Shown: one piece after another, positions 3,926 to 18,880 of the stretch
Layout: every line of letters starts with the position of its first letter
Numbering within the stretch: the first letter of the stretch is position 1
Source: Malassezia furfur
Lineage: Eukaryota
DNA: 44,096 nucleotides
Assembly: GCA_052055015.1 (NCBI GenBank)
Contig: JBQJIT010000042.1
Direction: 5' to 3' (one strand)
The notes under the pieces: model-generated
What the model was told of the DNA's origin: nothing
The model's database searches: none
Seen by the model: the letters and a program-made list of their open reading frames with translations, nothing else
Program-made: the position numbers and the translations under genes

Positions 3926-5039
3926 ATGTGGGCGGCAGCCTGGACGCGGAGTTTGCGTTTCGCTGGGAAGAGCATGTCGGGTCTTCGCGGCGTGCACAAC
4001 GGATCAGTGCGCACATTTGAGGGCATTTCCTCCTACCGCACATGGCGTGACGAGTCCATCCGGCAGCGTCAGACGGTGGGCTTTGTGCCGACAATGGGCG
4101 CCCTACACCAGGGCCACCTCAGCCTCGTCGATGCGTCCTTGGCGGAGAATGACATGACGATTGTGTCCATTTTCGTGAATCCGGCGCAATTTGCGCCACA
4201 TGAAGATCTTTCTAGCTACCCGCGCACTATTGAAAGTGATCTCGCACAGCTTAACGAGCGCCAAGAGAAGGCAAACGCCTCTGGCCGTTTAGCGGTGCTC
4301 CTTCCCACGGTCCGTGACATGTACCCCCATGGATTTGCGCAAGAAATAAGCAAACAGGTGGGTGCCTTTGTCGAGGTCAAGGGTCTTTCGCATCAGATGG
4401 AAGGCACGACACGGCCAACTTTTTTCCGTGGCGTGGCTACGGTGGTAACCAAGCTATTCAACATTGTCATGGTATGTTGCCTTTCTCACGCAGCCGGACC
4501 GTGCATACTTTGGCCAAAAGGACATCCAGCAAGCCATTGTGTTGCGCCGCTTGGCTGACGATCTGCTCTTCCGTTACCCCCAGGGCCACGAGAATGTTCG
4601 TGTACTGCCTACGAGTCGCGACCCTACCGACATGCTGGCGCTGAGCAGTCGCAACGCTTACTTAGATGCACGCGGCCGTGCGGCCGCGCCAACTCTGTAT
4701 GAGGCTCTTGCGCGCGGCCAGATGGTTTGGAACAAGCTCCTTGAACAACAAGTGAGCCCTGCAGAGCGCATTCAGGCAACGCTCGCAGCGGTTCGTGAAG
4801 TGGTCGATCGGCGTGCTGCAGGGCTCGCGTCGGCGCCGTCGGACGACGGCATCCGCGCCCACGTAAAACTCGACTATGTGTGCCTCAACGACCCCAACAC
4901 GCTCGAGGAGCTGGTGGACGACGCGAACGAGGGGGCGATTCTGAGCGGTGCGTTGTGGATGTACAACGACGCCCGGCAGGAAAAGCCAACGACGCGCCTG
5001 ATCGACAATATGCTTTTGGGTTTCTCGATGGACTCGTAG
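3926..5039 (+). CDS. PAN6: Pantoate--beta-alanine ligase (pantothenate synthetase)
   Basis: FVPTMGALHQGH, SIFVNPAQF, RPTFFRGVATVV, YFGQKDIQQ, ALSSRN, RLIDN. Intron 4472-4493. Start is uncertain (in-frame ATGs at 3905, 3911, 3926, 3974). Confidence 0.93.
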
Positions 5040-9546: not shown

Positions 9547-12500
9547 TCAGGGCGGCAGCGGCACACCGCCGGGCGTGGAAAGCGCCGCGAGGCGGCGCGC
9601 GCGCAGTTCGTCGAGACTCGGTGCGCCGCCGGGTGGCACGGGCGGCGCATCGTCGGTGGGGATGTGTTCCTGGAAGAGACACGCGAGCAGGTCGTCGGTC
9701 GAGCCCATAAGGTCCCCGCGGCGCGCCTCGCGCGAGACGTCCTCGGCGTGTTCGAGATGCGTTGCCTGGAGTGCAGCGCTGTCCATGGCATCGGCGGCGT
9801 CGGCATCAGCGTCGCGCGCGACGTACAGGCACTGGGCACGCGATGCTGCAAGCGCGACGATGCGCTGCTCGACCGTGTCGTGCACCATGTAGCAGTACAC
9901 GTGCGTCGCGCGCGTCTGCCCAATGCGGTGTACGCGCCCGATCGCCTGCAGCTCGAGCGCGTGGTTCATAAGTGGCTCAAGGAGAAAGAGGTGCGTCGCG
10001 GCGAGCAGGTTGAGCCCGGCGGACTGCACCTCGCTGTGCAGCAGCAGCACGGGGACGTCGGTGTGTTGAAAAGCATCGACGGTCGCGCCTACCCGTTTGC
10101 TGCCGCCGCCCTCGAGGCGCGCGTACGGTACGCCGTTGGCGCGCAGCGACTCAGCCACCAGGTCGAGTCCGCGCGCAAACGACGAAAACACGAGGCTCTT
10201 CTCGCGCGTGGTGCGGTGCAAGTGGAGCAGGTGCTTGGTGAGCAGGTCGAGCTTGCTGCCGTACCGCCCTTGCGACGGCGTGCGCTCAATGGCCGTGCGC
10301 AACGCGTCGGGCAGCGTGCGGTACGCTGGTGCGCCGCGGGCGGCAGAAGTGGCGGTGCTACTGGCGCCGACATCGGCCTCGGCATGGCGGAACACGACGC
10401 GGTGCACGTCGTTCAGCGTGAGCTTTGTCTTGCACATTGGGCACGTGCGGCGCCCCTGCTTCATCCACGCGTAGAAGCACGCTTGGCAGCACAGGTGGCC
10501 ACACGCGTTTGTCAGGATGCCCGTCTCGATCAGGTTCGTACAGATAAAGCAGCGACGCGCCTCGTCATCCGCGTGGCCGCCCTGGATCTGCTCGAGGTGT
10601 GTCAGGTAGCGTACGCGGCCCTCAGCGGCGCCGATGCGCTGCCGCCATGCGCGCTCCTGCGCGCGTGCGGCGAGCAGGCTCGGCACCGCACCGTCGGGCA
10701 TCTCGGGGTCCTGCACCTGGTCGGACAGCTCCTGCATCTGCTTAAAATAGACGCTGCGCGCATTGAAGCATGCCTGCAACACCGCCTGTTCCTTGCGCAG
10801 GCGCTCCACGAGCTGCGTCTGCGTGCGCACCACGTCATGCAGCGTCGCGTGTGCCGCGCCCAGCAGCTCGCTTTCCTCGGAACGCACCGCATGGTCGCGC
10901 AGCTCGCGTAGGCGCGCACCCAACTCGGCGAGCGGCACTGCGCCGGCGAGGGCCACCTGTGCTCGCGCCGCATCGAGGCGCGCAAAGTGCGCGAGCTGCA
11001 GTTTTTGAGCCTCGCGCTGCTGCGCCAACACCGCATCCTCTTCGCCATTCTCGGCGGGGGCATCCTCGCCAAAGCGGCGCGTCTTGACCACACGCAGCGC
11101 ACGATCCAATTCGACGTACAGCTGTGGCCGCGCCGTGGCACCGAGCGCAATGCGTCCGGTGAGCAGCTCATCGCGCTGTGCGAGCAGCGGGCGATACATC
11201 TCCAGCAGCGTCTCGGCCTCGATCTGCGCGTCCAAATTTTCCGCGTACACGTCGTCGTTCTCGCGATCCTTGTCCACCTCGCGGTTCACGGGTTTGGCGA
11301 GGCGCTCAAGCAGCTGCGCCCGCCAGTCGACGACGAGCGCCGCATGTGCACGCAACGTCGCGAGGCGCGCCTGCACCTGCTCCAGCACGTCGCGGCCTAG
11401 CAGCGCTTGCATCGAGAAGCGCGGCTCCAGCTCGTCGCGGCGCACAAGCCGCTGGCGCTGCATCCCACGCACGCACTGCTCGACCGCTTCGCGCGCGTCG
11501 GTCAACAGGCGCTGGCGCGTGGCCTCAGCCGCGGCATATGCGGCGTCTTCGCGCGCACGCAGCGAGGCAGTCGACGGAGGGCCCGACGCGACCGGCGCAT
11601 CGGCCTCGCGCTTGACCGTCAGGGCGCCGGCCTCGGGCTGCGTGGGCTCCGCGTCCGTCTTGGTGTCAGGGTCGGCCGGCACTGCAGGCTGCTCGCCCTT
11701 GGCCGCCTCGTCCTTGGCCGCCCCGGCCGCGGCGCTCTGCGCTTCGCCCATCTGGAAGTAGCAGTGCCCTAGGAACTGGTGCACGCGGTGCACCATCTGA
11801 AGCCAGTGGCGCACCCGGTTCCGCAGCGCGCCGACATGTTGCTGCCGCGCGCGCAGCTTGTCGTGCGGCGCATCGGGCGACGCCGAATATGGCATGGCTG
11901 CATGCGTCCGCTCGTATGCCGCCTCGGCGGCAAGCTCGGCGTCCGTGAAGCGGTACAATGGCCCCTCGCGGTGCGCCGCATCGAGCTCGCGCATGAGCTC
12001 GTCCACCTGCTCGTGGGTCTCGGGGAGGAGCAGCTCAAGCTGCTTTTGCGCAAGCGCGAGGCGGTCCTCGGTGCGCAGCGACGTTAAAAACGCCACGTCG
12101 TCCGCCGCCACACTCGTCTCGTTCGGCACGGGCGCCACGAGCTCGTCGCGCGGCGCAAAAAGGAGCACAGAGGCACGGTAGACACGTTTCAAGGCAACAT
12201 TGTGCCGCAGCGTCAGCAGCTCGGAGCGCGCGCTGTCAAGCATCATCACGAGCACCTGGTCAATGCTGCGCAGGTTGACGAGGTGGTGCGCGTGCCCGCC
12301 GGCGTCGAGCGTGTGCCCTGCGGTGCGCCACGCGACCTGGGGGTGTGTGCACGCCTGGCGAAGGCGCAGCAGCTGCGCACGCAGAGCGGCCGTGTCGAGC
12401 TGCCACGTCTCGCTGCGCGGCGCACCGTCCTCGGTGATGTCGAGCGCGTCAAGCGCCTGGCGGTACGCCTCACGATAGAAAGCCGACTCGGCATAGGTGA

Positions 12501-14112
12501 ACTCGACGGGGATGAGGCACCGCTCCTGCGGCGGAAGAACCATCTCGTGCGCAACCTGCGCTTTGGTGTGCCGGATGCCGATCTGTGACAGGAGCGCCGC
12601 GAGGTAGGGCGCCATGCGCGGCGACATAATGTGCTGCCATAGCTTGGTCGGGGACGCAGATGGTACGAGGCCCAAAAACCACAGGCACATGCGCAGGTCG
12701 TCGAGGCGGCGCACCGGCGTACCTGACACGGCGACGCTCGTCTCGCGGCGGATCAATGCGACCGTCTTGGCCGCGTTGCCGCCCACAAGCTGCACCTCGT
12801 CCATGACCACGCGCCAGAATGCGAGCTGCACAAGCGGACTGCGCGGCCGCTCATACCGTGCGGGGCGCCGCAGCGCACGCACAGGTGCCGTGCTCGACAC
12901 GGCCAGCTCCTTGGTGAGCGTCTCAAACGACACCACGATCACGTCGAGCTCCTTGGCCCACGCAGCAAACGATGCGTGTCCGTGGCGCTGGACGTCGGCG
13001 GCCGCCTGCTTGTGTCCGAGGAACGAGTAGGTGCGCAGTGTTGGCGCATGCGTGCCGATCTCGTCGAGCCACTGTCGCCGTAGCGTCTCGGGCGCGACGA
13101 TGAGCGTCGTGCCGACCGGCTGCACCTCGACCTCGTTGGCCGTATCGTAAAAGGGCATCAGCGACGCACGCCCCGGCGCCGTGCGTTCAAGCAGCAGCGC
13201 GAGGATCTCAACGGTCTTGCCAAGACCCATCTCCTCGGCGAGCATGGCACTCGGCACGTCCGCCTCGGCCTTGGCACGCGACGTCGTCAGCTCGCCGTGA
13301 AGCAGGTGCACGTACACCTCGGTGCGCGGCACACGCACCCACCACGGGCCGAGCGCGCCGTGTGCGTATACGCCGTCGCGCACCGCCTCGCGCGCAAGCA
13401 AAAACGCCAGCGACCGCCGCTGGAAGGGCAGCAGATGCGCTTGCAGCGCGCGCGGCTGTGGCGCCTCGGGCATGCGCATCGCCTCGTCCAGCTCTCGCGC
13501 ACACAAACTCGAGTACACGAGGTCCGCGCCGCTCGCATGCGAGGCGTCAGCGTCGTGCGCGGGGTCGAGCGTCGACAGCAGCGCCAGCAGCTGCGTTGTG
13601 ATCGGTAAGGCATGCGGCCGGTCGAGCGCGCCGGGCGCAACGTGTGCATTAACGTCGAGCGTGAGCATATCGTCGTGTACGGCAACGTGTGCGCCTACCT
13701 GAACGACGTCGGCGTCGTGCGCGAGCTGCAGTAGCGGCGCCAGCCATGCCGTGTCTGGCGCACGTGCGACCGGCAGCGTAAGGAGGCGCGTGTCATCGAC
13801 CAGCACGTCAACGAGCGCCGCATGCGTCGGTGCCAGGAGTGTGCCCGGACGTAGGCGCGCGGCCCAGTCGTCGACGAGCGCAAGGCGCACGTACGACGCG
13901 AACGAAACGAGGGCGGCACGTGCGCCGGCGGCGTTGTCGCCGTCGTCGTCGTCATCGCGGAGCGTGAAGTGCAACTGCGCCGCAACGAGCTGTGGACCGT
14001 GTGCTACCGTGTCCACGGGCCGCTTGGTGCGTGCGTGCACGTCGAGCGCGGCGCGCGTTGCGAGCACGCCGCCGTGCGGCCGCGGAGCCACGCGTAGGTA
14101 CGCGTGGCGCAT
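9547..14112 (-). CDS. IRC20: SNF2-family ATPase with RING finger (Irc20/SHPRH-like)
   Basis: LLPFQRRSL, LAEEMGLGKT, WRVVMDEVQ, SGTP, LRQACTHPQ, RING CFIC..CGHLCC..C..CPMC, QAIGRVHRIGQ. Start at 14112 preferred; the in-frame ATG at 14187 overlaps the COX6 ATG. Confidence 0.85.
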   Translation of the reverse strand: MRHAYLRVAPRPHGGVLATRAALDVHARTKRPVDTVAHGPQLVAAQLHFTLRDDDDDGDNAAGARAALVSFASYVRLALVDDWAARLRPGTLLAPTHAALVDVLVDDTRLLTLPVARAPDTAWLAPLLQLAHDADVVQVGAHVAVHDDMLTLDVNAHVAPGALDRPHALPITTQLLALLSTLDPAHDADASHASGADLVYSSLCARELDEAMRMPEAPQPRALQAHLLPFQRRSLAFLLAREAVRDGVYAHGALGPWWVRVPRTEVYVHLLHGELTTSRAKAEADVPSAMLAEEMGLGKTVEILALLLERTAPGRASLMPFYDTANEVEVQPVGTTLIVAPETLRRQWLDEIGTHAPTLRTYSFLGHKQAAADVQRHGHASFAAWAKELDVIVVSFETLTKELAVSSTAPVRALRRPARYERPRSPLVQLAFWRVVMDEVQLVGGNAAKTVALIRRETSVAVSGTPVRRLDDLRMCLWFLGLVPSASPTKLWQHIMSPRMAPYLAALLSQIGIRHTKAQVAHEMVLPPQERCLIPVEFTYAESAFYREAYRQALDALDITEDGAPRSETWQLDTAALRAQLLRLRQACTHPQVAWRTAGHTLDAGGHAHHLVNLRSIDQVLVMMLDSARSELLTLRHNVALKRVYRASVLLFAPRDELVAPVPNETSVAADDVAFLTSLRTEDRLALAQKQLELLLPETHEQVDELMRELDAAHREGPLYRFTDAELAAEAAYERTHAAMPYSASPDAPHDKLRARQQHVGALRNRVRHWLQMVHRVHQFLGHCYFQMGEAQSAAAGAAKDEAAKGEQPAVPADPDTKTDAEPTQPEAGALTVKREADAPVASGPPSTASLRAREDAAYAAAEATRQRLLTDAREAVEQCVRGMQRQRLVRRDELEPRFSMQALLGRDVLEQVQARLATLRAHAALVVDWRAQLLERLAKPVNREVDKDRENDDVYAENLDAQIEAETLLEMYRPLLAQRDELLTGRIALGATARPQLYVELDRALRVVKTRRFGEDAPAENGEEDAVLAQQREAQKLQLAHFARLDAARAQVALAGAVPLAELGARLRELRDHAVRSEESELLGAAHATLHDVVRTQTQLVERLRKEQAVLQACFNARSVYFKQMQELSDQVQDPEMPDGAVPSLLAARAQERAWRQRIGAAEGRVRYLTHLEQIQGGHADDEARRCFICTNLIETGILTNACGHLCCQACFYAWMKQGRRTCPMCKTKLTLNDVHRVVFRHAEADVGASSTATSAARGAPAYRTLPDALRTAIERTPSQGRYGSKLDLLTKHLLHLHRTTREKSLVFSSFARGLDLVAESLRANGVPYARLEGGGSKRVGATVDAFQHTDVPVLLLHSEVQSAGLNLLAATHLFLLEPLMNHALELQAIGRVHRIGQTRATHVYCYMVHDTVEQRIVALAASRAQCLYVARDADADAADAMDSAALQATHLEHAEDVSREARRGDLMGSTDDLLACLFQEHIPTDDAPPVPPGGAPSLDELRARRLAALSTPGGVPLPP

Positions 14113-14124
14113 GGTCCACCGTGG

Positions 14125-14132
14125 CACGTGAC
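14125..14132. promoter_or_regulatory. CACGTGAC E-box in the IRC20/COX6 divergent promoter
   Basis: Lies in the 73-nt gap between ATGs 14112(-) and 14186(+). Confidence 0.5.
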
Positions 14133-14185
14133 GTCGGGAGGGAGCGGAGGCGGCGGCCCGGTTTTTGCGAGCCCCTCCTTCCACC

Positions 14186-14631
14186 ATGGCTTTGCTGACG
14201 GGTGCTTTCCGCGTTGCTGCTGCATCGACCAGTGCGCGCGCGGCGCTGTTTGCGCGCGGTGCTCCGCTTGCTATGCAGGGTGCGTGTTGATCTGCTGACC
14301 CACAGCGCGTGCGTACTCGGAGTCGACCGAGACCTTTGAAGAGTTCAACGAGCGCTTTGTCAAGTTCTTTGACGGCGTCGAGGACCAGTTCGAGGCGCAG
14401 CGTGGCCTCAACAACGCCTTCGGTCAGGACCTGGTTCCGTCGCCGGAGGTGATCGAGAGCGCCCTGCGCGCGGCCCGGCGCGTGAACGACTTCTCGCTGG
14501 CCGTGCGTATCTTCGAGGGCCTCAAGTACAAGGTTGAGACGGACACGCAGTACAAGGCCTACCTCGAGGCGCTCTCGTCGGTGCGCGAGGAGCTCGGCGT
14601 GCCGCTCAAGGAGCAGCTCTACTCGTCGTAA
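14186..14631 (+). CDS. COX6: Cytochrome c oxidase subunit Va / Cox6, 2 exons
   Basis: Arg/Ala-rich presequence, intron 14280-14305, then ETFEEFNERF..QRGLNNAF..DLVPSPEVIESALRAARRVNDF..AVRIFEGLK. Confidence 0.93.
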
Positions 14632-14649
14632 CTCTAGCGACCCCCACCA

Positions 14650-15245
14650 CTATAGTTCGGAACTCCGTTCAGCCGCCTTGGCCGCGTTGCGATGCTTGCG
14701 TGTGATGCGCTGCTCGAGCTGGAAGAAGGCCTGCAACGTCGGGTCCTCGGTGCCGACTGCGGCCTCCTCGGCCTCCTCCTCGCTCGCCTCGGCGCTCGGC
14801 TTGCCGGGCAACGCACCGAGCTTCTTGGGGTCCCACTCCTCCGTAGTGATAGGCGGCGACGCGTCCGCCAGACGCGCGCGGATGGCGCTCATCTCTTCCT
14901 TCCACTCCTCCACGTCGTCTGCGTACAGATTGTATACGCAATTGACGCACCCTTATTTGTCAGCGGCGCACGTACCCGACATGCAGCAGTCCTCGGCACC
15001 GGGGGGGTTCGGACGCAGCGGCACGTCGATGCCACGCACCCGAACCGTCCCCGCGGCTTCGGGGCGGATCTGCTCCGAGGAAAGGTAGTTGATCGTCGGC
15101 TCCGACGCTGCACGGCCCACAAACTCAATCTTGCGGCGCGGCACCGCCATGTTGGGATCCGCACGGTCCTCGGCCGCGATCTTTTGCGCGAGCATCTCGT
15201 CGAGGGGGTAGCGCGCCCACATGTCGGTCAGGTTGCGCCCGAGTC
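14650..15245 (-). CDS. Oxidoreductase-like (Oxidored-like / UPF0651 / OXLD1-type) Cys-motif protein; probably the last two exons of a COQ8 fusion, else stand-alone from ATG 15222
   Basis: GIDVPLRPNPPGAEDCCMSG|CVNCVYNLYADDVEEW after removing the 24-nt intron 14952-14975 (AAG acceptor); C-terminal DPTLQAFFQLEQRI. Confidence 0.8.
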
Positions 15246-15268
15246 CTGCGTGAGCCCACGCTACGCAC
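15246..15268 (-). other. 23-nt intron containing the COQ8 stop codon
   Basis: Minus strand reads GTGCGTAGCGTGGGCTCACGCAG. Donor GTGCGT and 3' end CTCACGCAG both occur in other introns here. Removal is in frame with the downstream exon. Confidence 0.75.
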
Positions 15269-17480
15269 GCTGCTGGACGGCCTGCGTGTGCAGGCCACGT
15301 GCACCGCCGCGCGCAAACGCGCCGGGCGAGGGGGGGTGGTGGGTTCCGTCGCTGTACACGTAGGCGTTGGTGATCCGCTCGAACAGCGCGCGGCAGTCGA
15401 CGTGCGCACCGAGACGTGCGCACAGCAAAAATGCGCCGCTTAGCTTGCGGTTCAGCGAGTAGGTTTCCGGCGGCGGGGGGCGCAGCCGCTCACGCAGCAT
15501 CACGGGGATCTGCGCGCGCACCTCGTCCGTGATGGTCTGGTTCGCGAACGGGAACGGCTGCGGCGCCGTCGCACGGAACGGCTCGCCTAGCGCGACCATC
15601 GAGTCGACGTGCGCCTTGCGCATGGTCTGGGTCAGTGACTGGGGATGACCTACCTCGGGCTCCTCGCCGTTGAGGTAGCCGATCGCGACGCTCCACGCCT
15701 CACACGCCTCGCGGTCACCCGCGACGGCGGCGCGGAGCAGGCTGATCCACGCGTCCATGAACTCGCGCGTGTAGGGCCGCGTGGCACCAAAGTCGATCAG
15801 TTGCAGGCTCTGGTTGCGCTCGCTGTACAAAAAGTTGGTCCAGTTGGGGTCGGTCTGCATTAGGCGCCACTCGAACAGCTCGCGCAGGCTCAGATCCATC
15901 ACCGTCAGGCCGATGCGGTCGCGCGTCGCGGGGTCGAGCTGCATCACCTTGGTCAGCGGCCGGCCGCGCATAAACTCGGTCGTGAGCACACGGGGAGTGC
16001 ACAGCGAATCGATGACACGCGGCACCTCGAGGCGCAGTGCGTCCGGCGCACCGCCGCCAGCGTCGATGTGCGCACGGAAACGACGGCCCATCTCGGCCTC
16101 ACGCGTGTAGTCGCACTCCTCCTCAAGCTCTTTTTGTAGGACGCGCACACTGTTTTCCAGGAAGAGGCCTTTCGGCAGCAGCGACGAGGCCATCAGCAGC
16201 CACTTGATGTTGGCCAGGTCAGACGAGATCGAGTCGGCCACGCCGGGGAACTGCACCTTGACCGCGACGCGCTGGCCCGCCATGTCGGGCTGCGCGGGGA
16301 AGGGGTCGGCCAGCACCGCATTGTGTACCTGCCCGATCGACGCCGCGGCAAACGGCCGCTCGTCGAACGACGCGAACGACGCACGCCAATCATCCCCGAG
16401 CTCCGCGCGCATCACCCGATCGAGCTGCCACGCCGGCATGTAATGCGCGCTGTTCTGCACACGCAGCATCACTTGCTCGATCTGAGGAGGGAGCATATGA
16501 CTATCCTGGATGCTCAGAAACTGGCCGAGCTTGAGCGCTGCACCGCGCATCGTGCTCAGCTTGTCCACCAACCGGTTCACGTTGGCCTCCGACAGGAACG
16601 GCGACGCACGCCCCGACGCGTCCGACGGGCCCGTCGCGCGGCGCAGATACTCGCCTGCCGAACCCCACGCGAGGCCGGCGCCCAGACTTCCGTAGTGCAA
16701 TAGACGCCCAAGACGTGACGAGGGCACACGCGCCGCACGCAGCGGTGTCGAACGTTCCTCGGTCGCCGCGTCGTACTCGTCTTCTAGCACAGGGGTGCTC
16801 GGTGCGATGGGGTCCGGCGCTGCGGGTGCTGTAGGTGCTGCGGGTGCCGCAGGCGCTGCGGGTGCCGCAGGCGCTGCGGGTGCCGCAGGCGATTCTGCGC
16901 CCTGCACAGCTTCCGTTGCGCCTTTGACGGCCGTCGCAGCCGTCTGTTCAAGGCCCTGTGCGACTTCGGCGACGGCCTCGGCGCGACTGGGCGCCGACGG
17001 CGCCGAGCGCGCAGGAGGAGACTGGGGCGCATCCGTGCGCGGTGCACCCGTGCGCATTGGCTCTGGTTTCATGGCTGACACACGGGCCTGGGGGGGCGCA
17101 CCACGACTGACCGGGGCGCGCGGCTCGTTGGAAGCCGTGGTGCGCCGTTCTTGTTGCGGCGGTGCTGGCGATGCAACAGATACAGTTTGCTCCGGAGAAC
17201 GGCTCGGTTCACTGCTCGCGGCCTGCTTTGAGGGCCACGGCGTGCTTGGCATGCGCTTGGGTTGCGCAGCACCCGGGAAGGGCGCCGATGGAGACGCGCG
17301 AGGGGTCGCATCCCCCGCACCCTCCTTGTCTTCTCGCGCAGTGCGCTGCGTCGGCCACGCGCCCGAGTTGGCCGGAGGCGCCTTCGGCCGCGCGAGAGCC
17401 ACCTGCTGCGCCAAGCGCCCCGCCGATTTCGCGACCAGGCCAAGATCGGCCCACGAGACGCCCGGCTGCGCTCGCCACAT
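15261..17480 (-). CDS. COQ8: ABC1/UbiB atypical kinase Coq8 (ADCK3-like), mitochondrial
   Basis: VPSSRLGRLLHYG, MRGAALKLGQFLSIQD (KxGQ), FAAASIGQVH, VAVKVQFPG, MQTDPNWTNF, LIDFGA, PPPETYSLNRKLSG. In-frame 27-nt intron 15627-15653. Confidence 0.93.
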   Translation of the reverse strand: MWRAQPGVSWADLGLVAKSAGRLAQQVALARPKAPPANSGAWPTQRTAREDKEGAGDATPRASPSAPFPGAAQPKRMPSTPWPSKQAASSEPSRSPEQTVSVASPAPPQQERRTTASNEPRAPVSRGAPPQARVSAMKPEPMRTGAPRTDAPQSPPARSAPSAPSRAEAVAEVAQGLEQTAATAVKGATEAVQGAESPAAPAAPAAPAAPAAPAAPTAPAAPDPIAPSTPVLEDEYDAATEERSTPLRAARVPSSRLGRLLHYGSLGAGLAWGSAGEYLRRATGPSDASGRASPFLSEANVNRLVDKLSTMRGAALKLGQFLSIQDSHMLPPQIEQVMLRVQNSAHYMPAWQLDRVMRAELGDDWRASFASFDERPFAAASIGQVHNAVLADPFPAQPDMAGQRVAVKVQFPGVADSISSDLANIKWLLMASSLLPKGLFLENSVRVLQKELEEECDYTREAEMGRRFRAHIDAGGGAPDALRLEVPRVIDSLCTPRVLTTEFMRGRPLTKVMQLDPATRDRIGLTVMDLSLRELFEWRLMQTDPNWTNFLYSERNQSLQLIDFGATRPYTREFMDAWISLLRAAVAGDREACEAWSVAIGYLNGEEPEVGHPQSLTQTMRKAHVDSMVALGEPFRATAPQPFPFANQTITDEVRAQIPVMLRERLRPPPPETYSLNRKLSGAFLLCARLGAHVDCRALFERITNAYVYSDGTHHPPSPGAFARGGARGLHTQAVQQRA
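16816..16887. repeat. Coding minisatellite, eight 9-nt units, encoding a Pro-Ala-Ala repeat in the Coq8 N-terminal region
   Basis: ggcgctgcg/ggtgccgca units read directly from the + strand. Confidence 0.85.
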
Positions 17481-17836: not shown

Positions 17837-17878
17837 ACCATGTTCGCGAGCTCGTCGTTTCGTTACATTTCAAATCAA

Positions 17879-18880
17879 ATGAGTTCTCGCGCAATGCAAC
17901 AAATCTCTCGCAAGGTTGTTCAAAAAGTTCACGCTATCGAGCAGGCCGAAGGTGTCGGTGCCCGCGTGCGCCGTGCACTGGGCAACGCCCAGCTCCGCAA
18001 CTTCAGCCCCTTCCTGATGCTTGACCACTTCAAGATCGGCGAGGGTGCTGGCTTCGCTGATCACCCTCACCGTGGTCAGACGACTGTTACCTACATGTTT
18101 GACGGTTACATGGAGCACGAAGACTTCGCCGGTCACCGCGGCATCATCGGCCCCGGTGACATCCAGTGGATGATGGTCGGGCGTGGTATCATGCACGCCG
18201 AGATGCCTCTCCACCGCGACAAGGAGGGCAAGCCGCTGCCGACCCCCACGGGTATGCAGCTGTGGATCGACCTGCCCGCGGCGTCGAAGAAGATCGACCC
18301 CTCCTACCAGGAGTTCTCGGGCAAGGACCTTCCCGTGCAGACGCCGCGTGCCTCGGAGCCGAAGGAGACCGAGGGTGAAGGCTGGGAAGTCAAGGTGATC
18401 TCGGGTAAGAGCCACGGTGTGGAGTCGCCCGTGCGCCTGCCGGAGAACGGCGGGTGCTACTATATGGACATCAAGCTGCAACCCGGTGGCTGGATCTTCC
18501 AGGACATCCCGCACACCTGGAACGCCTTCGTCTACATTGCCGACGGCAAGGCTAAGATCGGTGACAGCAACGAGGTGCACGACCAGTACCATACCCTGAT
18601 CCTCTCCAACCCGGGTCTGAAGACGGATTCGGCAGAGGAGGCGAAGCAAGTGCTCAGCAACAACGACGGTGCTCGCATCAGCAACCCGACGGACAAGCCC
18701 CTGCGGGCGATCCTGATCGCCGGTGAGCCGCTCGACCACCCTGTCGTGCAGTACGGTCCTTTCGTGATGTGCTCGAAGAAGGAAATCTTTGAGGCCATAG
18801 AGGACTTCCAGATGGCCCGCAACGGTTTCGAGCGCGCCTCCAACTGGCAGTCCGAGATCGGCAAGCGCCTTCGCCACTAA
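17879..18880 (+). CDS. Pirin-family bicupin
   Basis: EQAEGVGARVRR, PFLMLDHF, GFADHPHRGQTTVTY, HEDFAG, QWM..GRGIMHAEMP, QLWIDLP, VQYGPFVM. Intronless with strong codon bias. Start 17879 or 17894. Confidence 0.92.
   Translation: MSSRAMQQISRKVVQKVHAIEQAEGVGARVRRALGNAQLRNFSPFLMLDHFKIGEGAGFADHPHRGQTTVTYMFDGYMEHEDFAGHRGIIGPGDIQWMMVGRGIMHAEMPLHRDKEGKPLPTPTGMQLWIDLPAASKKIDPSYQEFSGKDLPVQTPRASEPKETEGEGWEVKVISGKSHGVESPVRLPENGGCYYMDIKLQPGGWIFQDIPHTWNAFVYIADGKAKIGDSNEVHDQYHTLILSNPGLKTDSAEEAKQVLSNNDGARISNPTDKPLRAILIAGEPLDHPVVQYGPFVMCSKKEIFEAIEDFQMARNGFERASNWQSEIGKRLRH

Follow-up and report, generated by a model that had tools for sequence, protein, structure and literature searches.

COQ8 is required for the synthesis of coenzyme Q (CoQ) and is mutated in human CoQ deficiency, and its partners are still unsettled. 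Human OXLD1 and its fungal relatives, the Oxidored-like proteins, are conserved mitochondrial proteins to which, to our knowledge, almost no function has been assigned; yeast YPL107W is presumably a member of this family. We analysed 44,096 nucleotides (nt) of Malassezia furfur DNA (contig JBQJIT010000042.1 of assembly GCA_052055015.1; this whole stretch is called the window), in which a gene on the minus strand (17480-14650) brings the two together: a COQ8 body is followed by an Oxidored-like module, and the 23-nt intron between them holds the COQ8 stop codon. As read from the sequence, this fusion is genuine and conserved across Ustilaginomycotina.

Mitochondrial tandem precursors that are cut after import are known from yeast (Arg5,6) and from S. 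pombe (the Cox15-ferredoxin Etp1 and Rsm22-Cox11). They likewise carry two unrelated units behind one N-terminal signal, and in the fusion described here a motif resembling a presequence end lies between the units. The tandem precursors are known to be cut, whereas cleavage of the fusion is a prediction, and little positive charge precedes its internal site.

A precedent closer to the CoQ pathway is the fusion of Coq10 and Coq11 in Ustilaginaceae, which was used to argue for a functional link between these proteins, as stated in the part of the source available to us (PMC11541779). The initial annotation of the locus had pointed to this precedent, and the same part of the source bears it out. 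Like Coq10-Coq11, the fusion in the window is of the Rosetta-stone type, joining a protein of the CoQ pathway to a mitochondrial protein about which little is understood, and it is found in the same fungal group. However, its partners are different and its spread is wider (Malassezia, Exobasidiomycetes-type and Ustilaginomycetes names). A subphylum-wide fusion is the same kind of clue that linked Coq11 to Coq10, and we consider this real, conserved Rosetta-stone fusion a moderately interesting and useful lead for COQ8 and OXLD1 biology.

A four-exon frame from COQ8 to an Oxidored-like module

When four minus-strand exons were joined by script, a single frame of 918 amino acids (aa; 2757 nt) with one terminal stop resulted. 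Exon 1 (17480-15654, start ATG 17480-17478) encodes an N-terminal region of low complexity and the greater part of the kinase-like domain of COQ8. It is separated by intron 1 (15653-15627; 27 nt, GTAGGT..CTGAC..CAG, in frame and stop-free) from exon 2 (15626-15269), which comprises the COQ8 C-lobe (..NRKLSGAFLLCARL..) and a linker carrying RGLHT (15299-15285). Then follows the junction intron (15268-15246), GTGCGTAGCGTGGGCTCACGCAG, 23 nt in phase 1 with a GTGCGT donor, a CTCAC branch-like site and a GCAG acceptor. Exon 3 (15245-14976) contains a G-R-N-L-x-D-x-W motif (GRNLTDMW, 15240-15217), a variable linker and the first Oxidored-like half up to CCMSG. Intron 3 (14975-14952; 24 nt, GTACGT..CTGAC..AAG) splits the invariant Cys motif (CCMSG / CVNC), and exon 4 (14951-14650) supplies the second Oxidored-like half, a PPITTEEW segment and a C-terminal helix (..DPTLQAFFQLEQR..) before the stop TAG at 14652-14650.

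The stop codon of COQ8 (TAG, 15263-15261) lies inside the junction intron, 5 nt from its 5' end, just as the initial annotation had read it. Splicing divides an Arg codon (C/GA, phase 1) and gives the in-frame reading ..AVQQR-LGRNLTDMW... The unspliced long open reading frame (ORF; 17480-15261, minus strand) encodes 739 aa, and retention of the junction intron yields a product of 730 aa, that is, the 739-aa ORF less the nine codons of the 27-nt intron. The previously proposed sizes (918 aa spliced, 730 aa retained) were thus reproduced. Upstream of the junction, about 88 codons in the frame of the module are free of ATG, a stretch even longer than the roughly 75 codons noted before; the first ATG of this frame (15222-15220) is located 24 nt past the acceptor and downstream of the conserved GRNL motif. 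At the site of intron 1, annotated relatives such as the M. brasiliensis model P0001 read ..EPE/TMRKAH.., and the same position is found in two metagenome loci (L001 and L002, see below). At the site of intron 3, the homologues P0121 and P0002 read CCMSGCVNCVY unbroken. If left unspliced, intron 1 adds nine residues (VGHPQSLTQ) within the kinase-like domain, which go unnoticed in a plain ORF reading.

The upstream part is, by homology, a COQ8 orthologue, for which a role in CoQ synthesis is predicted. An ABC1 domain (PF03109; E 5.7e-63, 212.7 bits versus a cut-off of 22.9) spans residues 340-594 of the 739-aa ORF (16463-15699, minus strand), and the ORF contains the COQ8-type stretches AALKLGQF (KxGQ-type), VAVKVQFPG, QTDPNW and IDFGA. 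Among solved structures (PDB, phmmer), the best relatives were human COQ8B (E 5.6e-123) and COQ8A (4.4e-104), followed by bacterial ABC1 proteins at 1e-33 or weaker, and named database matches were labelled COQ8 or 'ABC1 - bc1 complex assembly'. The N-terminus (MWRAQPGVSW..) matches that of the homologues P0002, P0003 and P0004. With COQ8/ADCK3-ADCK4, the UbiB-ABC1 atypical kinases, the window protein has the full ABC1 domain in common. In contrast to ordinary COQ8, it is extended at the C-terminus by about 190 residues that contain a second domain, whereas other named basidiomycete COQ8 chains end 20-30 residues past NRKLSGAF...

This second domain is Oxidored-like (PF09791). In the window it is split over the last two exons, which scored 27.0 and 30.4 bits (cut-off 24) at profile positions 2-22 and 22-45; the spliced module of a sister lineage (P0121) reached 72 bits. 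We aligned 124 module sequences (profile A1), in which the five positions of C-C-x-x-G-C-x-x-C are invariant, and the spliced reading of the window, CCMSGCVNC, has all of them. A full HMMER search with the P0121 module returned 615 representatives at E <= 0.001. Among the best 150 of these 615 relatives, five are fused, with a length of 700 aa or more, while most stand alone and have 100-300 aa; searches for shorter or longer homologues, made with the module, gave only 5 matches each. The window module shares with the family, including human OXLD1, the CC-x-x-G-C-x-x-C motif, the PPGPE flank and the C-terminal DP..AF..E..helix, and with stand-alone fungal members in addition the G-x-N-L-x-x-R-W/Y motif. 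In the latter, G-[RQ]-N-L-x-x-R-[YW] often follows a motif typical of presequence ends, and the N-terminus is basic (mean net charge +3.2 over 30 residues). Stand-alone members have a basic presequence of their own, whereas the window module, as the C-terminal portion of COQ8, lacks one. Human OXLD1 is imported in a membrane-potential-dependent manner and is processed, according to the available part of the MitoCoP study (PMC8664129).

An AlphaFold2 (AF2) model of the sister-lineage module, based on the A1 alignment, reached a mean predicted local distance difference test (pLDDT) score of 76.7, with values above 90 in the domain and in the final helix and low confidence in the first 60 residues. 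The model shows a confident beta-hairpin (62-71), a Cys knuckle (82-90) that runs into a long helix (91-114), and a pair of helices at the C-terminus. A Foldseek search of this model against the PDB gave no match at E <= 0.001, and VIA-align found only helical-hairpin look-alikes (best Z 5.6; 3.4 on a second look) and no convincing solved fold. Complex prediction for the COQ8 domain (residues 88-560 of P0001) with the P0121 module scored 0.00 in both runs, which were made without controls and speak neither for nor against contact.

The junction intron and the spread of the fusion

To place the junction intron among the introns of this genome, we searched both strands of the window for GT..branch..YAG stretches whose removal joins two open frames of 60 codons or more. 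This gave 31 candidates, 19 of them 21-23 nt long (21 nt: 7; 22 nt: 6; 23 nt: 6) and several with a GTGCGT donor. The junction intron had been described as modal in length, and it does fall into this local peak; it also has GT-AG ends and a branch-like CTNAY near its 3' end. Throughout the window ultra-short introns dominate; their donors have the form GTRYGT, and a CTNAY is placed 2-7 nt ahead of YAG.

Its 3' end, CTCACGCAG, occurs five times in the window versus 0.89 times expected (none of 100 shuffles reached five), and three of the five copies stand at 3' ends of intron candidates. One ends the intron at 4472-4493 of the pantoate-beta-alanine ligase gene (PAN6), where positions 2-134 and 136-267 of the Pfam profile match on either side, and another ends an intron in an actin-family gene. 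The 3' end that the initial annotation had seen in ARP2 and PAN6 introns was therefore recovered in PAN6 and in an actin-family gene. Strict intron-like motifs of 17-30 nt were found 41 times in the window, compared to 11.2 +/- 3.9 (maximum 22) in 100 first-order random sequences, and about 0.004 of them are expected over any one given stop codon. The loose GTGCGT..CAG pattern alone was not enriched in the window (21 versus 18.8), so the argument for an intron is built on the full signal set and its context. Malassezia genes are tightly packed and have very short introns, as described in the accessible part of a review (PMC7426719). Positions 15268-15246 are thus very probably a spliceosomal intron of the ultra-short class of this genome, and the gene-structure side of the finding is ordinary here.

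Other lineages carry an intron at the same place. In the closest relative, M. brasiliensis (P0001, MBRA1_000836; 96% identity over the COQ8 part), the chain reads ..SLHTQVVQQRLGRNLTDMWARYPL..; the same 23-nt splice, ..QQR/LGRNLTDMW.., is already annotated there. The read-through ORFs P0004 (97% identity over the aligned part) and P0011 (86% identity) show ..CVAWAHAG/LGRNL.. and ..CVVPAHAG/LGRNL.. at the junction in the module frame, which implies a 23-nt insert whose GTGCGT and CACGCAG ends are kept while its middle has changed. A metagenome scan added two contigs from distant relatives. In L002, which is Tilletiopsis-like, COQ8 ends with ..RQRTREI*, and 29 nt further on the module begins in a different frame; removal of a 64-nt phase-1 intron (GTGAGA..TTCCAG) produces a continuous fused ORF. 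The Arg codon that this intron interrupts is four residues ahead of the N of NLADRW, so that position and phase are identical to those in the window. In L001, a phase-1 C/GTGAGT donor near this position follows an RGVHT motif, and a fused ORF results with either of the in-frame acceptors (29 or 65 nt). In both contigs the junction intron contains the COQ8 stop. Occurrence in such distant relatives indicates that the intron is old.

We then counted relatives among the best 120 COQ8 matches listed. PF09791 and PF03109 were found on one chain in 34 of them, and every named carrier belongs to Ustilaginomycotina; the proteome check suggested in the initial annotation thus turned up the fusion. Fused chains among the matches listed came from Malassezia (yamatoensis, vespertilionis and sp. 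CBS 17886), from Violaceomyces, Pseudozyma, Ustilago, Sporisorium, Testicularia, Thecaphora, Ceraceosorus, Meira and Exobasidium, and further from Tilletiaria, Tilletia, Melanopsichium, Kalmanozyma, Sympodiomycopsis and Parajaminaea; Mycosarcoma maydis UMAG_02464 is one of them. The named Pucciniomycotina, Agaricomycotina and Wallemia COQ8 matches listed had ABC1 only and no PF09791. Continuous ORFs from COQ8 to the Cys motif were also present on Logan/ENA contigs (P0013, P0014, P0019, P0025, P0026, P0030, P0031 and P0056), and a Malassezia-like ORF of 259 aa (P0127) covers COQ8 exon 2 and everything from there through the whole module without interruption. Two records are unusual. The 1289-aa Tilletia horrida chain (P0046) has a third domain, PF01323 (DSBA-like thioredoxin), which could stem from a further fusion or from a merged neighbour gene. 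In P0133 (466 aa, Ustilago-like), ABC1 is joined to Oxidored-like without the COQ8 C-lobe or the linker (..EAPNP/GIAIPLKPPPPG..), which may reflect alternative splicing or faulty assembly.

A point of practical use is that annotators miss introns of 21-24 nt, which has left several public models of this gene truncated or mis-spliced. The models of M. brasiliensis (P0001) and M. psittaci (P0003) misplace the 24-nt intron and skip the CVNCVY segment, and for this reason Pfam does not flag the second domain of P0001. Those of M. cuniculi, M. pachydermatis and Tilletiopsis washingtonensis end at the junction and look like truncated models; the Tilletiopsis-like DNA of L002 shows the junction intron although the T. 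washingtonensis model stops there.

Could the GT..AG stretch only look like an intron, and the fused models be read-through errors of gene prediction? Such an artefact would fit the missing enrichment of the loose GTGCGT..CAG pattern (21 versus 18.8) and the faulty database models, P0001 and P0003 with their skipped CVNCVY included. But only about 0.004 strict motifs are expected over a given stop, the frame relation is kept in independent lineages, ORFs on unannotated contigs run continuously across both domains, and two linker motifs (see below) are kept in 26/32 and 25/32 fused chains. We consider this explanation close to refuted.

In the literature searched, we found no description of a COQ8-Oxidored-like fusion and no paper combining Oxidored-like with COQ8, and searches there for UMAG_02464, um02464, Oxidored-like and PF09791 gave no mention. 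The single paper found with both OXLD1 and 'coenzyme Q' drew no link between them. S. pombe Coq12 was considered as an Oxidored-like link to CoQ and was rejected, as it is an unrelated flavin reductase (pfam01613). The fusion can be seen in public protein records, yet within the reach of the literature searches it has not been interpreted. The initial annotation knew of no description of it, which holds for the literature searched but not for the databases, where 34 of 120 matches carry both domains.

Linker motifs, possible cleavage and the tie to complex I

The linker between the two domains contains two conserved elements. A motif of the form R-x-[FLIYM]-[HS]-[TSA] (core R-x-[LFIY]-H-[ST]; RGLHT in the window) was found in 26 of 32 fused chains, compared to 2.6 by shuffle, 39-62 residues past NRKLSGAF. 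A GxNL-type motif is present between COQ8 and the Cys motif in 25 of the 32, and in all 20 fused chains with both, the first motif lies upstream of GxNL. Stand-alone members show the related R-x-[FILY]-[HS]-[ST] within their first 60 residues (22 of 93 versus 4.4 by shuffle). An Arg at position -2 or -3 before a hydrophobic residue, followed by Ser or Thr, is the site pattern of the matrix processing peptidase. The fusion would thus have swallowed the presequence end of the partner and kept it. Since the fused chains keep the presequence-end motif of the stand-alone proteins, the precursor may be cut there after import. That the matrix processing peptidase cuts at this internal motif, releasing COQ8 and the module at a 1:1 ratio, is a tentative proposal to which we give somewhat less than even weight.

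The tie to complex I came from the solved relatives of the module. Profile A1 matched chain o of PDB 7ZM7, 7ZMB and 7ZMG, an 'Oxidoreductase-like domain-containing protein', with E 6.3e-29 over profile positions 9-199; this relative (7zm7_o) was found by sequence only, and not by structure comparison. Chain o is the 380-aa Ct-NDUFV3 of Chaetomium thermophilum complex I, as identified by its length and by the CCMSGCVNC motif in Table S5. Ct-NDUFV3, which is an accessory subunit and sits at the peripheral-arm tip, is related in sequence to the window module as a member of one family and has the same Cys motif. However, Ct-NDUFV3 stands alone and has a long Pro/Glu-rich N-terminal region, whereas the window module is fused to COQ8 and is linked to complex I through homology. 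Its authors, in the part of the source available to us, relate Ct-NDUFV3 to mammalian NDUFV3 by its binding site and 'weak sequence similarity' only, and in the PDB profile A1 matched no mammalian NDUFV3 chain at E <= 1. Knock-down of OXLD1 lowers the activities of complexes I and V in H9c2 cells, according to the accessible part of a 2025 paper (PMC12413873). That is, the Oxidored-like family has a documented tie to complex I.

The initial annotation had read the Cys motif as a candidate metal or Fe-S site. This found no support: the cofactors listed for Chaetomium complex I, in the portion of the source at hand, comprise 8 Fe-S clusters, one Zn, FMN, NADPH and phosphopantetheine, and none is assigned there to Ct-NDUFV3. 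Since a family member is the subunit at the NDUFV3 site, the fusion likely couples CoQ supply by COQ8 with the main CoQ-reducing enzyme or with its N-module. A role for the module as an Fe-S enzyme in the CoQ pathway itself seems less likely. Taken with the Chaetomium subunit and the OXLD1 knock-down, the fusion leads to a concrete and inexpensive hypothesis, namely that proteins of the OXLD family connect the supply of CoQ with complex I. Suitable test systems are Ustilago, Malassezia, yeast and human cells.

Fused precursor, separate genes or intron retention

The explanation that we favour, and hold to be probable as a whole, is that one gene with four exons encodes a 918-aa fused mitochondrial precursor, first the COQ8 body and then an OXLD1-type module, with the spliced mRNA as the productive form and a coupling to complex I as its meaning. 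The fusion would have arisen before the Ustilaginomycotina radiated and have been kept since, and the junction intron would be an old phase-1 intron that happens to hold the first in-frame stop. As the module lacks a presequence of its own, it would enter mitochondria on that of COQ8.

Several observations weigh against this explanation or parts of it. Public models of three species end at the junction. The stretch of 30 residues that precedes the internal motif has a net charge of only about +1, compared to +3.2 in true N-termini, and six of the 32 fused chains miss the motif. The link to complex I is one of homology, and family members also occur in yeasts that have no complex I. Finally, the sister-lineage sequence P0121 and the ATG 24 nt past the acceptor, which is present in the window and in M. 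brasiliensis, fit other readings as well. P0121 is a 186-aa ORF on a Logan contig of 3005 nt and 99% identical to the corresponding exon of P0004. Since intron 3 is absent, the sequence must come from RNA; nevertheless it starts with ..TDVW, just past the junction, and is not joined to COQ8; among the homologue-search matches, there was no fully spliced fused ORF of its lineage. The contig is about the size of a whole COQ8-module mRNA, and P0121 may stem from a junction-retained transcript, a separate downstream transcript or a broken contig.

A separate downstream transcript would be expected from two tandem genes, with COQ8 ending at its TAG, the Oxidored-like protein starting at ATG 15222 on a transcript of its own, and the 23-nt motif either unused or an intron of the 5' untranslated region. 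The shared ATG, the start of P0121 near this point, the unfused public models and the very close packing of Malassezia genes, reported in the available part of PMC7426719, are all compatible with such an arrangement. But the ATG is not a conserved start: the window and M. brasiliensis have M at this residue, P0004 has V, and both P0011 and M. yamatoensis have T, so that three related lineages lack it, whereas GRNLxDxW upstream of it is conserved. The R-x-L-H-T motif, equally conserved, also lies upstream. A protein starting with MWARYPLDEM.. would have an acidic N-terminus unlike a presequence, whereas its stand-alone relatives are basic. Moreover, length, ends, phase and position of the junction intron are conserved, and other species have continuous fused ORFs. 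We therefore regard two tandem genes as very unlikely.

Regulated retention of the junction intron, by which the gene would make the 730-aa COQ8 and the 918-aa fusion in a controlled ratio, accounts for P0121 in another way, as an RNA-derived sequence spliced at intron 3 and unjoined to COQ8, from a lineage in which no fully spliced fused ORF was seen. The stop 5 nt into the intron would give a clean COQ8-only product, and L001 and L002 have a stop within the junction intron too. An early stop, however, is what any retained intron tends to give: it is the chance outcome for an intron whose length is not a multiple of three and thus no sign of design. In addition, many Ustilaginaceae-type chains and the Malassezia-like P0127 are continuous fused ORFs, so that no such switch is possible in those species. 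Regulated retention appears unlikely to us, if less so than tandem genes, and the fused precursor stays the preferred reading. Slightly more doubtful than retention by itself is a far-reaching version in which the OXLD1 family would be a direct partner of COQ8 that ties CoQ synthesis, physically or by stoichiometry, to the NADH-oxidising tip of complex I, the precursor of Ustilaginomycotina would be cut at the relic presequence site, and retention in Malassezia would set the COQ8:OXLD ratio.

Three genes around the fusion were noted in passing. A pirin gene (17840-18880, plus strand) begins on the opposite strand at a distance of 360 nt from the COQ8 ATG, and this head-to-head spacing suggests a common divergent promoter region. 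On the other side, a small intron-containing gene (14225-14640, plus strand) appears to stop about 15-20 nt from the stop of the fusion gene and is thus convergent with it. Next to it, the minus strand encodes a 1546-aa SNF2-family helicase (9547-14187) with a RING finger between the helicase lobes, which is Rad5/Rad16-like and seems ordinary.

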